Of a stretch of 64,000 nucleotides of DNA, positions 2 to 62,898 are shown in pieces. The DNA comes from a virus (lineage: Duplodnaviria > Caudoviricetes), in IMG/VR virus record IMGVR_UViG_3300009540_000001, positions 1-64,000 of that record. One strand, written 5' to 3'. The notes beneath the pieces are model-generated. The model did not search any database. It saw only the letters and a program-made list of their open reading frames with translations, and had not been told where the DNA came from. Within the stretch, counting starts at the first letter, position 1. Each line of letters begins with the position of its first letter. Position numbers and translations under genes: made by a program.

Positions 2-496
2 GTCGGCGCTACCTATACCCCGCAAGGGCACGTATTTCTGAACCCTGTCGCGCGTGCCAAAGAGGACTGGACCGTCATCGCGTCGCACGAGGCGCTCGAG
101 CTCGCGATGAACCCGGAGCTCAATCTCTCGACCGTGAGAGAGGTTGACGGCGGGGTCGAAGCGTGGGCGCGGGAGGTCTGTGATCCTGTGCAAGGCAGCA
201 CGTACGAGGTTCACGGCGTAAAGCTGGCGAACTTCGTGTACCCCGAGTTCTTCATTCCGGGGTCCGACGGACCGTGGGACCACCTCCAACTCCTGAAGGG
301 CCCTTTCACGCTCCTCGAGACCGGGTATGCTTCGGTGCTGAAAGCTCAAGGTCCACTCGTCCAGCGCGACCTCTACCCGGAGTCAATCCATGCGTCGTCT
401 TCTCCCCCTCGTCCTTCTCCTCACCCTCTCGCTCGGGTCCTCGGGGTGCGCGTGGTACGCGCGCTTCAAGACGGATCCGATCGCGGCGATTGCTGA
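2..496 (+). CDS. 5'-truncated hypothetical protein, zincin-like (SHEALE...EVCDPV...NFVYP)
   Basis: The frame is open from the window start (VGATYTPQGHVF...WTVIASHEALELAMNPE); HExxE-type motif followed by EVCDP. Confidence 0.55.
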   Translation, partial: VGATYTPQGHVFLNPVARAKEDWTVIASHEALELAMNPELNLSTVREVDGGVEAWAREVCDPVQGSTYEVHGVKLANFVYPEFFIPGSDGPWDHLQLLKGPFTLLETGYASVLKAQGPLVQRDLYPESIHASSSPPRPSPHPLARVLGVRVVRALQDGSDRGDC

Positions 497-848
497 GGGC
501 GGCCAGTACATCACGACGGCGCTGAACATGGCGCGCGGGGCGTTCGAGATCTACGCCGCGACGTCGGGCGACCCGAACATCTCCACGGTGCGCACGACCT
601 TCAACGAGGTCGCGGGCTCGGTCGATCGCGGCCTGCTCGTCGCGTACGACGGCCTGCGCGTCGCTGCGCGCGTGCGCAACGGCAACCCGGACGTGACGGA
701 GCTCCTGCGCGACGCGCAGCAGGGCATCGGGCATGTGCACGAGTTCCTCGCGGGCTTGCCCGGCGCTGGCCCGGGGCGCGCGGTGGCCCCGTCGATGCGC
801 GATGCGCTCGCGGCGACGGCGGCGGCGGCGCGACCTGTCGCGCGCTGA
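390..848 (+). CDS. predicted lipoprotein
   Basis: MRR, then a hydrophobic stretch, then lipobox-like SSGC; followed by a terminator. Confidence 0.65.
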   Translation: MRRLLPLVLLLTLSLGSSGCAWYARFKTDPIAAIAEGGQYITTALNMARGAFEIYAATSGDPNISTVRTTFNEVAGSVDRGLLVAYDGLRVAARVRNGNPDVTELLRDAQQGIGHVHEFLAGLPGAGPGRAVAPSMRDALAATAAAARPVAR

Positions 849-860
849 GTCGAAGGCAAA

Positions 861-900
861 CGAAAAATAGAGAAGGCGGGGGAGTTACCTCCCCCGCCCT
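861..900. terminator. intrinsic terminator between convergent genes
   Basis: Perfect 10-bp stem ggcgggggag/ctcccccgcc (875-898); the A-rich flank gives a U-tract on the minus strand. Confidence 0.75.
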
Positions 901-905
901 CGGCC

Positions 906-1136
906 TTAGCGGAGACCGCGTACTTCTCGAACGACGTCTCGCGCGAGACGCCCTGCGGCGAGGGCCTTCGCGAATACGACAGGCCAGTTGATGCCGCTCT
1001 GGTCGATCATGGCCTTGTCTTCAGGGGACAAGGCCTCGAACGCGGCCTTCACCGCCGATGCGGTCTGCGGGTTCTCGACCCCGTTGGTGACGTGGTCGGA
1101 GATGCTCTTCGAGAGCGTGGGAAAAAGAACGTCCAT
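906..1136 (-). CDS. hypothetical protein (76 aa)
   Basis: ORF with SD AAGGGAG upstream and phage-like codon usage. Confidence 0.65.
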   Translation of the reverse strand: MDVLFPTLSKSISDHVTNGVENPQTASAVKAAFEALSPEDKAMIDQSGINWPVVFAKALAAGRLARDVVREVRGLR

Positions 1137-61081: not shown

Positions 61082-61430
61082 TCGCGGCTCCGTACTCGAC
61101 GGTGTCGAGTTGGACTAGCTCGCCCTTGACGATCCTCTTGATCGCCGAAAGAACGAGCGTCTGGTTGATTAGCTGGACGGGTAACGTACTGACACTACCG
61201 CCCTCCAGCAAGTGGCGATAGCACCTCCACATCTCCACCGCCGCCGACTGCTCCGGCACAGGCGAGGTGAAGTAAGCGATGAATAAGTAGTTGACTACCC
61301 GCTTGTGGATCTTCGGGTCGAAAAGAACGTGGGCCTCATCTGCTACCGCTCGAAGGGCGCTGTCCCGCAGTTGGGACACTTCACGGAGCGTGTCGCTGTC
61401 GAGACCAGGCTTGCGTTGCACAGGGGGCAT
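60963..61430 (-). CDS. hypothetical protein
   Basis: ORF; its 3' part overlaps parB. Confidence 0.45.
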   Translation of the reverse strand: MPPVQRKPGLDSDTLREVSQLRDSALRAVADEAHVLFDPKIHKRVVNYLFIAYFTSPVPEQSAAVEMWRCYRHLLEGGSVSTLPVQLINQTLVLSAIKRIVKGELVQLDTVEYGAANDHREHAEHREHHQQAQGQEQGQGRPLRAGRAGASQRGR

Positions 61431-61534
61431 TGGGGAAGTGTTGCCATATCCCCTCTACGCCGTAAAGCCTCCGAAGCGGACTCTTCTACCAGTTCTTCCG
61501 GCGTTTTTGTGACGACGCCCAGCTTCTCGCCCAT
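61343..61534 (-). CDS. small zinc-ribbon protein
   Basis: CPLC...CPNCGTAPFE. Confidence 0.55.
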   Translation of the reverse strand: MGEKLGVVTKTPEELVEESASEALRRRGDMATLPQCPLCNASLVSTATRSVKCPNCGTAPFER

Positions 61535-61579
61535 GGGGGAAGGCTTACGCCTTTCCCCAGGGAAAGTCCAGGGTGTACG

Positions 61580-62359
61580 TCACCGCCCTCGGCCACGACA
61601 GGCGCTCCAATGCACGCACCACTTCGGGTCACACTTCCAGGAGTCGATGGAGGTGCGGGGGAAAATTCCGCGCTTGATCAAGTCCACCGTCTCTTCGAAG
61701 TCTTCAATGAAGACCTTGACGTCCGCCGACAACCGTGTGGTCTCGAGACGGTGGTACGCGGGGGTCTTCGTCGAGACGAGGTTGTCGATCCTCGCGAACG
61801 TCGTCCCCTTGACTGCGGCGTAAAGCGTGAGTTGGGGCTCGAGCCGCACATCGCGTTCTGACCACTTCGCGGTCGAAGTCTTCAGGTCCACGACCGTGAC
61901 CTTCTCCCCCGCGCCATCCAAGAGGTCGATGTACCCGAGGGCCGGCACCGTGCCGACCTTGACGACGAACTCCTGCTCGATCTCGAGTGGCTCCAGGTGC
62001 GGGAGCGTCTGCGCGTGGTACAGCTTGTACAAGAGGATGGCGGAGTCTTTCGACGCCGTCGGGTCCTCTGGGGCGTCACCCTTCTCCGCGTCGTACGCGT
62101 CGCTCACGGCTGCGACGCCTTGCGCGAGGCTGAACTCCTGCCCCTCCTTCTTCGCACGCAGGGCCGACTCCGCCCCCGCGTGAATCGCGATGCCCTTGAC
62201 CATCGAGAGCGAGGGTGGGCCCTTGATCCCGTGGATGTACGTGAACTCGAACGCCTTGGCGCAGGCCTTGAACGCCGAGTACTTCGAGTAGGACATGGCC
62301 CCGCCCGGGATCCCGTCGTCGCGGATCTCCGGCGGGATCACGGGCAGAGTGCGTCTCAC
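61580..62359 (-). CDS. PD-(D/E)XK RecB/Cas4-like nuclease
   Basis: SYSK....C, GIAIH, GYIDL, VDLKT, QLTLY, C...WC....C. Confidence 0.85.
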   Translation of the reverse strand: MRRTLPVIPPEIRDDGIPGGAMSYSKYSAFKACAKAFEFTYIHGIKGPPSLSMVKGIAIHAGAESALRAKKEGQEFSLAQGVAAVSDAYDAEKGDAPEDPTASKDSAILLYKLYHAQTLPHLEPLEIEQEFVVKVGTVPALGYIDLLDGAGEKVTVVDLKTSTAKWSERDVRLEPQLTLYAAVKGTTFARIDNLVSTKTPAYHRLETTRLSADVKVFIEDFEETVDLIKRGIFPRTSIDSWKCDPKWCVHWSACRGRGR

Positions 62360-62898
62360 AGCTCTCCGTCGTCAGGGATGTCGTCGCCGCCCACGCCACC
62401 CGCGCTGCCGCCCCCGCGAACCTGCGAGCGGGAGAGCACGTCGGCGAGAACAGCGCGGTCCTCCTCGGAGAGCTCCGAGGGGTCGATGATCACGCCCTTG
62501 GCGCGCGCCGGCTCGGGCTCGGAGAAGTTGCCGGGCGGCGGGGAGCTGCCCGCGAGCTCCGGGTCGAGGTAGCGCATCTTAGGCGCGGAGATGGTGGGCG
62601 ACGGCTCCCGAACGGGAACGAACATCGAGTTCTTGGGCGGGGGCTCGGCGCGGGGCTGAGCCGTGAACGCCGCTTTACGCGGTACAGAGGCGGCGGGCTC
62701 GGGCGCGGCACGTGCCGGCCGAGGCGCTTCGGGCGGCGGACCCATGTCCCCGTTGCGTACGACGCACTCGAGTTCCCCCAGGTCGTTGAACTTGAAAGGG
62801 AAGTTCTCCGTCTTCGCCTCGACTTGAAAGTTCTTCTTGGTCGACAGGTAGTACGCGCACGCCTTGATGATGTCGCCGTGCTCGAGTTCCAGTTTCAT
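62356..62898 (-). CDS. hypothetical protein, Pro-rich
   Basis: Start MKLELE, coupled to the helicase stop. Confidence 0.6.
   Translation of the reverse strand: MKLELEHGDIIKACAYYLSTKKNFQVEAKTENFPFKFNDLGELECVVRNGDMGPPPEAPRPARAAPEPAASVPRKAAFTAQPRAEPPPKNSMFVPVREPSPTISAPKMRYLDPELAGSSPPPGNFSEPEPARAKGVIIDPSELSEEDRAVLADVLSRSQVRGGGSAGGVGGDDIPDDGEL

Follow-up and report, generated by a model that had tools for sequence, protein, structure and literature searches.

Introduction

Clamps of the ParB family are known as centromere binders acting on parS, as a guard of the division site (Noc) and as a plasmid-wide repressor (KorB). We know of no report in which a whole virus chromosome is tiled with ParB loading sites. 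Here we analyzed the first 64,000 bases (the window) of IMGVR_UViG_3300009540_000001, a 172,374-bp IMG/VR virus record that is called G000 below, together with the complete record and its relatives. The window carries many copies of a short word, TAC-N3-GTAAAG, in genes and between them, and at 60002-61081 it carries a gene for an orphan ParB-like protein, which is a candidate reader of this word.

The plasmid RK2 has about a dozen KorB sites, mostly near promoters. Noc-binding sites (NBS) occur at a density of roughly one per tens of kb, and to our knowledge even spacing has not been reported for them. The matS site of Escherichia coli, GTGAC-N3-GTCAC, is present 23 times in ~800 kb, is confined to the Ter macrodomain and is read by the ribbon-helix-helix protein MatP. 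The core of the KorB operator OB is TTTAGC-G-GCTAAA, a 13-bp palindrome, and the clamp formed by KorB with cytidine triphosphate (CTP) can reach promoters at distances of up to 1.5 kb by sliding (PMC11790492). Noc is an orphan ParB paralogue that binds dispersed palindromic NBS sites and then spreads (PMC7333895). In Cluster A mycobacteriophages, stoperators are asymmetric 13-mers that are bound by a monomer in promoters and short intergenic gaps. Stoperators are co-oriented with transcription, and reversing them abolishes function (PMC9283540).

Results

A pseudo-palindromic word is present in about 100 copies

An initial annotation of the window had listed 33 exact copies of TAC-N3-GTAAAG. 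All were recovered, 19 on the plus and 14 on the minus strand (Table 1). The seven one-mismatch copies it had named, starting at 212, 5656, 7589, 42090, 43591, 48349 and 51576, were likewise found. Its estimate by base composition was ~0.1 copies for both strands; dinucleotide-preserving shuffles gave a mean of 0.07 and a maximum of 1. In the whole of G000 the exact word occurs 71 times (47 plus, 24 minus), compared with one copy per strand for the reversed control word. The first position can vary (T 71, C 20, G 7, A 3), which results in 101 NAC-N3-GTAAAG sites (61 plus, 40 minus); about 0.3-0.55 copies are expected for each variant class. The spacer is strictly 3 nt long, with 0-2 copies for any other length. 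It had been described as GC-rich, which is correct but too loose: the preference is for G (78 of 98 sites), then G or C, then C (77 of 98), and it also holds in a relative with 49% GC. Thus the refined motif is [T>C>G>A]AC-G(G/C)C-GTAAAG. Its core, TACG-S-CGTA, is a 9-bp palindrome, and the full site is a 15-bp pseudo-palindrome, c-T-k-T-A-C G-S-C G-T-A-A-A-G, also written TACGCCGTAAAG.

Next, both halves of each site were scored against GTAAAG. One half was always perfect, and its partner matched 3-5 of the 6 positions. The classes (6,5), (6,4) and (6,3) contained 35, 36 and 27 sites, compared with 0.2, 1.5 and 7 in third-order Markov simulations, and classes of (5,4) and lower were at background level. 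All seven sites in which the weak half has GAC in place of TAC carry a complete CTT flank. A loss in the core is therefore repaid in the flank, as would be done by a symmetric dimer with a threshold of total affinity. Judged from the sequences, such compensation is the behavior of a symmetric dimer and is neither promoter-like nor peptide-like. Among ~240 sites of G000-G004 no perfect palindrome was found. A general avoidance of perfect palindromes was considered and rejected, because the sister clade and G015 (see below) use such sites.

Sites are written into genes and evenly spaced

Genes of G000 were called crudely, based on the GC content of third codon positions, resulting in 197 genes and 90% coding DNA. 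The initial annotation had placed the copies in different frames and strands. This was confirmed: 24 of the 71 exact copies are intergenic, and the genic ones run with the gene in 27 cases and antisense to it in 20. The genic copies occupy all frames, with a preference for the cheapest one, Y-x-V-K. A further claim, that the word is not a protein motif, is supported by the use of all frames and both strands, by the non-coding copies and by the loss of genic copies in synonymous shuffles. When synonymous codons were shuffled within each gene (200 shuffles), the 71 copies dropped to a mean of 27.6 with a maximum of 33, and this residue is close to the number of copies outside the shuffled codons.

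The quasi-regular spacing was also borne out. Gaps between the 101 sites average 1710 bp, with a coefficient of variation (CV) of 0.54, compared with 0.98 for random sites (P<0.0002); none of 5000 random placements was as even as G000. The largest gap is 4159 bp, whereas 8737 bp are expected. The order of plus and minus sites is random (runs test p=0.53) and independent of gene strand. Since the spacing is even and the orientation random, coverage rather than direction looks like the selected property.

Non-coding DNA is enriched in sites 3-5-fold in several genomes, with about one third of the sites non-coding and two thirds genic. That intergenic copies extend the palindrome is true as a tendency: position -1 is T in 18 of 36 non-coding sites, compared with 17 of 62 in genes. 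About nine non-coding copies overlap a hairpin resembling an intrinsic terminator, with the CTTTAC half serving as its U-tract (in the window at 13650-13700, 14875-14930, 15715-15770 and 38340-38397; about five more elsewhere in G000). We read this overlap as a low-cost placement of an A/T-rich word in a GC-rich genome. A 6.6-kb stretch at 9809-16396, which includes the gene of an XRE protein, is specific to G000, with 1.2-1.9 kb in G001, G002 and G004. It still holds five copies of the motif, which is a normal density.

The word is conserved between relatives and switches between clades

G000 has a GC content of 66% and a 123-bp terminal repeat and is rated complete. All source runs with its sequence are activated-sludge (2017) or wastewater metagenomes, and the phage is uncultured. 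Megablast with the first 20 kb against 50,697 phage records gave no match. Using tblastn with the DNA polymerase and ParB, only remote matches (<35% identity) and no cultured relative were obtained among phage records. Family members were recovered from IMG/VR and other metagenome assemblies; genomes or contigs of relatives are labeled G###, and pieces of these or further metagenome contigs L###. Most genes of the family have no known function. G000 encodes a multisubunit, bacterial-type RNA polymerase (gene outside the window) and a sigma factor. The de novo motif scan was initially swamped by codon-bias words and tandem coding repeats, such as a collagen-like repeat in G021 and a VTCVxC paralogue motif in G011; occurrences were then required to lie at least 300 bp apart.

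The near clade (G001-G005, L014/L015, L060/L061, L203/L204), with DNA polymerases 62-65% identical to that of G000, uses the same word at one site per 2.5-3 kb. Two of its members, G004 (L026-L032) and G005, have 49% GC, compared with 63-66% in relatives at 45-70% protein identity. Both retain the word ACG-S-CGTAAAG, with the G-S-C spacer still favored. Conservation at the DNA level was evident, with 26-40% of the genic sites of G000 found at the identical orthologous position in G001-G004. At 10 of 11 compared sites the motif identity was 0.8-1.0 (0.6-0.67 at the eleventh), compared with 0.27-0.75 for the 24-nt flanks, and the amino acids around conserved sites often differ between relatives. 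The remaining sites of G000 were turned over between near-clade relatives, with the density maintained. The pattern suggests purifying selection on the sites at the DNA level, the 49%-GC genome included.

The sister clade (G006-G009, G014, L062-L064, L072) is more distant, with ~42% identity in the polymerase and ~50% in the terminase. It has no GTAAAG sites at all. In their place we found a perfect palindrome, TTCAC-N3-GTGAA, with a mean gap of 1.7-2.3 kb (range 0.2-4.1 kb) and a CV of 0.33-0.52 (P<=0.0006 in each of four contigs). A third dialect is present in the fragment G015, where GTAAA and GTGAA halves are mixed and perfect CTTTAC-N3-GTAAAG sites are included. Different words are used by clades of equal GC; thus the word tracks phage phylogeny and not base composition. 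Across the clades compared here, even spacing is the conserved property, and the word itself switches.

A ParB-like protein with intact nucleotide-binding boxes is a candidate reader

Two readers had been proposed, the XRE protein (14649-14846) and ParB. The first was rejected, since XRE has no homologue in the motif-bearing relatives and sits in the stretch found only in G000. The second proposal gained support from the fold, the conserved boxes and the pattern of presence and absence. The ParB protein matches Pfam HTH_ParB, the helix-turn-helix (HTH) domain, with 25.4 bits, above the cut-off, and ParB_N with 22 bits, just under the cut-off of 26.3; it also matches ParB PHROGs. Sequence matches in the PDB (E=1e-8 to 1e-3) include Myxococcus xanthus ParB, Spo0J, Noc, Caulobacter ParB and KorB, with an alignment to the ParB CTP-binding domain at E=1e-8. 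The arginine patch AGRRRREAA covers residues 124-132, of which G125, R127 and R128 are invariant in 17 homologues, and the ENLQR box covers residues 160-164, of which E160, N161 and R164 are invariant in the same set. An AlphaFold (AF2) model, with a predicted local distance difference test score (pLDDT) of 78, was matched by Foldseek to ParB-CTPgS, Noc and KorB-KorA-DNA, and its DNA-binding domain to Noc-NBS (6y93), KorB-operator (1r71) and ParB-parS (6s6h). The product is thus predicted to have a true ParB/Noc/KorB fold with intact nucleotide-binding boxes. The C-terminal helices 305-324 and 330-346 are confident in the model, and no structural match spans them. The N-terminus is rich in Lys, Thr and Asn and predicted to be disordered; a Noc-like amphipathic helix is not evident.

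A ParA (AAA_31) was not detected in the complete G000, while control profiles matched in 14 of 14 genomes. A ParABS partition system was therefore rejected, as the sites are also dispersed. A second ParB was not detected in G000, nor was a methyltransferase of the N6/N4 type, to which the methyltransferase search was confined. Protein searches returned a tight ParB family of ~13 clusters (E<1e-96), followed by generic ParBs at 1e-15, and wider searches of viral and metagenome contigs returned family members only.

ParB was found in every motif-bearing member of both clades with the locus covered. The recognition segment of its HTH reads S-E-G-N-V-S-Q-x-L-A-I-G-K-L in the GTAAAG type and A-Q-S-N-V-T-Q-T-L-S-L-L-T-L in the GTGAA type. 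The sister-clade half-site GTGAA(A) is identical to that of canonical parS, TGTTNCAC-GTGAAACA. In G000 and six sister-clade loci the ParB stop codon is followed by a site at a distance of 2-6 nt. As to the gene context, a sigma-70-like gene is convergent with ParB in every family member examined, and a PD-(D/E)XK nuclease gene adjoins ParB.

A syntenic outgroup has neither ParB nor the motif

Outgroups were found by a terminase-profile scan. G011 (L150-L154) has 187,862 bp with terminal repeats, is rated 100% complete and is syntenic with G000. The two share terminase (41%), RNA polymerase (51% and 46%) and sigma factor (37%), and G011 also retains the DNA polymerase, primase, PD-(D/E)XK nuclease and capsid genes. 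Searches of G011 with the ParB family profile, ParB_N and HTH_ParB gave no match, whereas the same searches were positive in G001, G004 and G007. No dispersed rare-word motif was detected in it either; its sole genome-specific word is the VTCVxC peptide of a paralogous family. The absence of both ParB and the motif from G011 argues for ParB as the reader. Since sigma factor, primase, polymerase and nuclease are kept without the motif, it also argues against these proteins as readers. The complete genome G019, which has no ParB match, is likewise without a dispersed motif. G030 has no match to the ParB HTH (ParB_N was not searched), and its only such word is an intergenic 22-bp palindrome of another kind.

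Two observations were made on the words of these outgroups. In G011, 19 same-strand copies of GTGACnTGCGT at 117-182 kb encode V-T-C-V-x-x-C, mostly near a stop codon, which is consistent with the ends of a paralogous small-protein family. In G030 (L182-L192), the palindrome is TTCTAAAAAACGTTTTTTAGAA, with 18 mostly intergenic copies, and it is probably an operator- or promoter-type element.

Features of the window

The coordinates of sites and genes are compiled in Table 1. Two further genes of the window showed insertions. The large terminase (46459-48636, plus strand) has 725 aa, compared with 552-575 aa in relatives, owing to an insertion of ~150 aa that the alignment places between residues ~153 and ~306. 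A PHROG match to 'thymidylate synthase' covers 152-246; the insertion may be an inserted domain or an intein. The ribonucleotide reductase gene (38414-41875, minus strand) contains an intein that includes a LAGLIDADG endonuclease domain.

Table 1. Motif copies and associated genes in the window
Feature	Coordinates	Strand	Basis
Exact site	2331..2342	+	pattern match
Exact site	4932..4943	+	pattern match
Exact site	6963..6974	+	pattern match
Exact site	8891..8902	+	pattern match
Exact site, inside G000-specific insertion	9923..9934	+	pattern match, comparison with relatives
Exact site, inside G000-specific insertion	10808..10819	+	pattern match, comparison with relatives
Exact site; CTTTAC half is U-tract of terminator-like hairpin on opposite strand	13653..13664	+
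Exact site TTTAC-GAC-GTAAA adjoining hairpin	14878..14889	+
Exact site adjoining strong hairpin, -31 kcal/mol	15718..15729	+
Exact site	16918..16929	-	pattern match
Exact site	20515..20526	-	pattern match
Exact site	22643..22654	+	pattern match
Exact site	25810..25821	-	pattern match
Exact site	28007..28018	+	pattern match
Exact site	29438..29449	+	pattern match
Exact site; identical codon position in G001, G002, G004	30690..30701	+
Exact site	31877..31888	+	pattern match
Exact site	33403..33414	-	pattern match
Variant AAC-TCC-GTAAAG	34444..34455	-
Exact site	35522..35533	+	pattern match
Exact site between convergent genes, adjoining strong hairpin, -33 kcal/mol	38383..38394	-
Exact site	41087..41098	+	pattern match
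Variant AAC-GCC-GTAAAG	42090..42101	-
Exact site	44928..44939	-	pattern match
Exact site; position kept in G001-G004 despite flanks just 33-52% identical	46345..46356	-
Two-sided weaker site TTTTAC-ACG-GTAAAC, 5/6 matches per half	48346..48360	.
Exact site	49566..49577	+	pattern match
Variant CAC-GGC-GTAAAG	51576..51587	-
Exact site within DNA polymerase gene; position kept in G001-G004	52971..52982	-
Exact site	53582..53593	-	pattern match
Exact site	55342..55353	-	pattern match
Exact site	56717..56728	-	pattern match
Exact site	57465..57476	-	pattern match
Exact site within sigma-like gene; position kept in G001, G003	59283..59294	-
Exact site between convergent sigma and ParB genes, 2 nt past ParB stop codon	59989..60000	+
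Exact site, 375 nt upstream of ParB start	61456..61467	+
Exact site	62673..62684	-	pattern match
Variant CAC-GGC-GTAAAG	212..223	+
Variant CAC-GCG-GTAAAG	5656..5667	-
Variant CAC-CGA-GTAAAG	7589..7600	-
Orphan ParB/Noc/KorB-like protein, 359 aa, candidate reader	60002..61081	-	Pfam, PHROG, PDB, AF2 and Foldseek
Sigma-70-like gene, convergent with ParB (context)	59191..59976	+	Pfam Sigma70_r2, PHROG sigma factor
Large primase-like protein, common to both clades	53402..57208

Discussion

On balance, and with modest confidence, we favor the reading that the sites are loading sites for the ParB-like clamp encoded at 60002-61081. It had been proposed that a phage protein binds the whole genome at intervals. 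The shuffles, the half-site compensation, the conserved positions and the motif switch agree with this proposal, and binding is what we infer from them. A ParB dimer would bind each 15-bp pseudo-palindrome via its two HTH domains. Nucleotide binding would close the dimer into a clamp, which would leave the site and slide a kilobase or two. As every position of the genome is within ~2 kb of a site, the coat would extend over the phage chromosome in full and over no other DNA. Selection would then act on coverage: the largest gap would be kept small, and redundant close copies would be removed because each copy costs rare codons. Such a balance between rare codons and uncovered stretches would yield under-dispersion, a turnover of sites and the strict retention of others. 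The same cost logic would explain the use of cheap frames, of terminators and of intergenic DNA as well as the five sites in the stretch found only in G000. The coat might serve compaction or separation from the host nucleoid, might mark the DNA as self, or might exert a KorB-like control over the phage RNA polymerase and sigma factor.

A more far-reaching version, which we regard as doubtful, is that a CTP-dependent ParB clamp coats the entire chromosome from ~100 sites and gives it a protein identity distinct from host DNA. The coat could in this case be a ParB condensate that forms a membrane-less compartment for replication and transcription, or a mobile platform for the phage sigma factor and RNA polymerase, like the T4 sliding clamp that activates late transcription. 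As platform or condensate, the ParB-sigma gene pair and the nearby SNF2 ATPase would be one system.

The initial annotation had named stoperators and matS, Noc and SlmA sites as analogues. Stoperators share with the phage sites that many copies of one short word are spread genome-wide and read by a phage protein (PMC9283540). In contrast, the phage site is pseudo-palindromic, mostly genic (~2/3), evenly spaced and randomly oriented (27 co-oriented and 20 antisense copies; runs test as above), and a stoperator system was rejected on these grounds of orientation, symmetry and location. The analogies with matS, Noc and KorB fit better. With matS the phage site shares the 13-bp palindrome, the 5-3-5 geometry and the presence of many copies, and matS is read by a dimer that organizes a DNA domain. 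However, matS is confined to the Ter macrodomain and is read by the ribbon-helix-helix protein MatP, whereas the phage sites are genome-wide. Among the features tested there was no further agreement with matS, and a MatP homologue was not seen in the phage, although no search aimed at one was made.

By analogy, the site system is best likened to KorB-OB and Noc-NBS, with binding by the phage ParB as a prediction. Like the phage ParB, KorB of RK2 has a ParB fold with an HTH, and KorB structures (8qa8, 8qa9, 1r71) were among the matches. Both systems have 13-bp palindromes with a high TTTA/TAAA content, which are dispersed across the replicon and not clustered. The KorB sliding range of 1.5 kb is of the same order as half of the largest phage gap. 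In contrast to the dozen RK2 sites near promoters, the phage has ~100 sites, two thirds of them genic, and evenly spaced. Neither IncC/ParA nor a recognizable KorA partner was found in the phage, which is a replicon with its own RNA polymerase and no sign of a plasmid lifestyle. Noc is, like the phage ParB, an orphan without a ParA role that has chromosome-wide palindromes, and Noc structures were among the top fold matches; the phage density of one site per 1.7 kb is, however, well above that of NBS. With chromosomal and P1 ParB-parS the phage protein has in common the arginine patch, the ENLxR box and the HTH. The sister-clade GTGAA(A) equals the parS half-site, and, as is often the case for parS, a site is directly adjacent to the parB gene. 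Unlike in ParABS, there is no ParA, the sites extend over all 172 kb instead of clustering near the origin, and their number is far above that of any centromere.

Several points weigh against ParB as the reader. The assignment of ParB as the probable reader of these sites derives from the phyletic pattern. The co-absence of ParB and motif represents one independent lineage, G011 and the near-identical G012. Many other genes are common to both motif-bearing clades, and co-variation alone is thus not specific to ParB. The half-sites of the phage are 3 bp apart, compared with 1 bp in the KorB operator and 0 bp in parS, and we know of no ParB-family member that reads half-sites 3 bp apart. For the C-terminal dimerization domain, no match to Pfam PF23552 was found in the ParB protein. 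The ParB gene of the near-clade genomes G001 and G004 has no site immediately next to it. Finally, the lineage of G021 (L162-L171; 192 kb, 53% GC, 93% complete), with its relatives G020 and G022 and the contigs L098, L099 and L104, has a palindrome of its own, GTCTTA-N4-TAAGAC. In G021 it forms 25 sites, 20 of them in long open reading frames, with a CV of 0.44, and no ParB N-domain was found in this lineage (within the 93% of G021 that is covered). An evenly spaced in-gene palindrome therefore does not require a canonical ParB, which limits our confidence in ParB as reader. A 305-aa protein of G021 (L163:16666-17583) has a weak HTH_ParB-like segment. It is of the DUF1016_N type and unrelated to the family by profile comparison; it was therefore rejected as a ParB and lends no support. 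Such palindromes, evenly spaced and within genes, may be more widespread in this broad group of RNA polymerase-encoding phages, with readers that differ by lineage.

Accounts in which a different dimer, for example an unrecognized HTH protein, an architectural protein or a repressor, reads the sites and ParB is a bystander are the most serious alternative, although we consider them unlikely. Palindrome logic and co-evolution imply a dimeric reader and do not tell which one, most family genes offer no function to choose from, and the G021 lineage manages an analogous palindrome without the ParB N-domain. An SNF2-family ATPase (G000 158758-160212, minus strand, equal to L202:3758-5212; L062:6969-9005; L203:5800-7848) likewise tracks the motif: tblastn detected it in three motif-bearing genomes (G002, G014 and G021), whereas it is missing from three genomes without the motif (G011, G019 and G030). 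It is the only non-core G000 protein common to G021 that is absent from these three. Its gene adjoins ParB in the sister clade and in L203/L204 and lies elsewhere in G000. On the other hand, ParB is the only recognized sequence-specific dimeric reader of palindromes common to both clades, the syntenic outgroup without the motif also lacks this protein, and the half-site is similar to that of parS. The second named candidate, XRE, lacks conservation. All alternatives discussed below conflict with one or more of the above tests.

That the sites are targets of a phage nickase or nuclease, as in the single-strand interruptions of T5, or a restriction-like signal for self-processing, is quite improbable. 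A nuclease gene does adjoin ParB, and the near-clade site is asymmetric, such that the lack of perfect palindromes in ~240 sites could avoid double-strand cuts; CAC-N3-GTG is also the recognition geometry of a known type II enzyme. Yet perfect palindromes are found at equal density in the sister clade and G015, G011 has the PD-(D/E)XK gene without the motif, and no role of even spacing is known for nicks. The sites are on both strands (47 plus, 24 minus) in random order, unlike T5 nicks, which are on one strand; T5-type nick sites were rejected for this reason.

We consider it very unlikely that the word is a replication signal at which a primase-helicase primes or loads, with the spacing set by the length of Okazaki fragments. 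Gaps of 1.7-2.3 kb with a capped maximum do resemble lagging-strand fragment sizes, the primase-like protein is conserved in both clades, and a palindrome would suit forks moving in either direction. Known primases, however, read 3-5 nt of single-stranded DNA and not duplex pseudo-palindromes of 12-15 bp. The half-site compensation indicates a symmetric dimer that reads duplex DNA, the strand of near-clade sites does not switch along the genome, and G011 has primase and polymerase without the motif.

Promoters, terminators or pause sites of the phage RNA polymerase and sigma factor would account for the sites only with a very small probability. The phage does encode both components, with the sigma-like gene adjoining ParB, about one third of the sites lie in the 3-5-fold enriched non-coding DNA, and about nine have the CTTTAC half in the U-tract of a hairpin terminator. 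But two thirds are genic, with 27 exact copies co-oriented and 20 antisense, intergenic copies show no fixed direction with respect to the neighboring genes, and an evenly spaced palindrome is not promoter-like. The promoter reading was rejected on the orientation of the sites, and G011 has RNA polymerase and sigma factor without the motif. Just as improbable is a host-imposed word (Chi-like, uptake-like or defense-related) that the phage mimics or has accumulated. Chi and uptake sequences are indeed over-represented dispersed words inside genes. Against this, the same word is found in relatives at 49% and 63-66% GC, two words are found in phages of equal GC (G000 compared with G006/G007/G009) following phage phylogeny, and an outgroup of the same GC is without any such word. 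A polar host word of the Chi or KOPS type was rejected, as there is no strand polarity and the word follows the phage clade and not GC. Chance, codon usage or a recurrent Y-x-V-K peptide has a negligible probability: 18 of 25 co-oriented genic copies do lie in the Y-x-V-K frame, but only 0.07 copies are expected in the window, synonymous shuffles erase the genic copies, all frames, both strands and non-coding DNA are used, and the DNA word is kept where the neighboring protein sequence is not.

Such an arrangement did not come up in a limited literature search covering phage ParB and dispersed sites, and a search with the motif as a word returned primer sequences only. The new features are the density of sites throughout a virus genome (one per 1.7 kb), the genic placement, the even spacing, the 3-bp gap and the clade dialects. 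The genic sites are written at the cost of rare codons, many of them at the same codon despite long divergence and a 17-point shift in GC, and in several lineages the spacing is more regular than expected by chance. Taken together, these features are direct evidence at the genome level that coverage is under selection, and they offer a natural read-out of the distance that a clamp would travel in vivo. The family has two or three motif dialects, which, together with the ParB clade that matches each of them, provide a system for the evolution of ParB specificity, which would include a half-site spacing not seen before. The family is unusual in having a bacterial-type RNA polymerase and a sigma factor, and a clamp could help to separate phage transcription and replication from those of the host.

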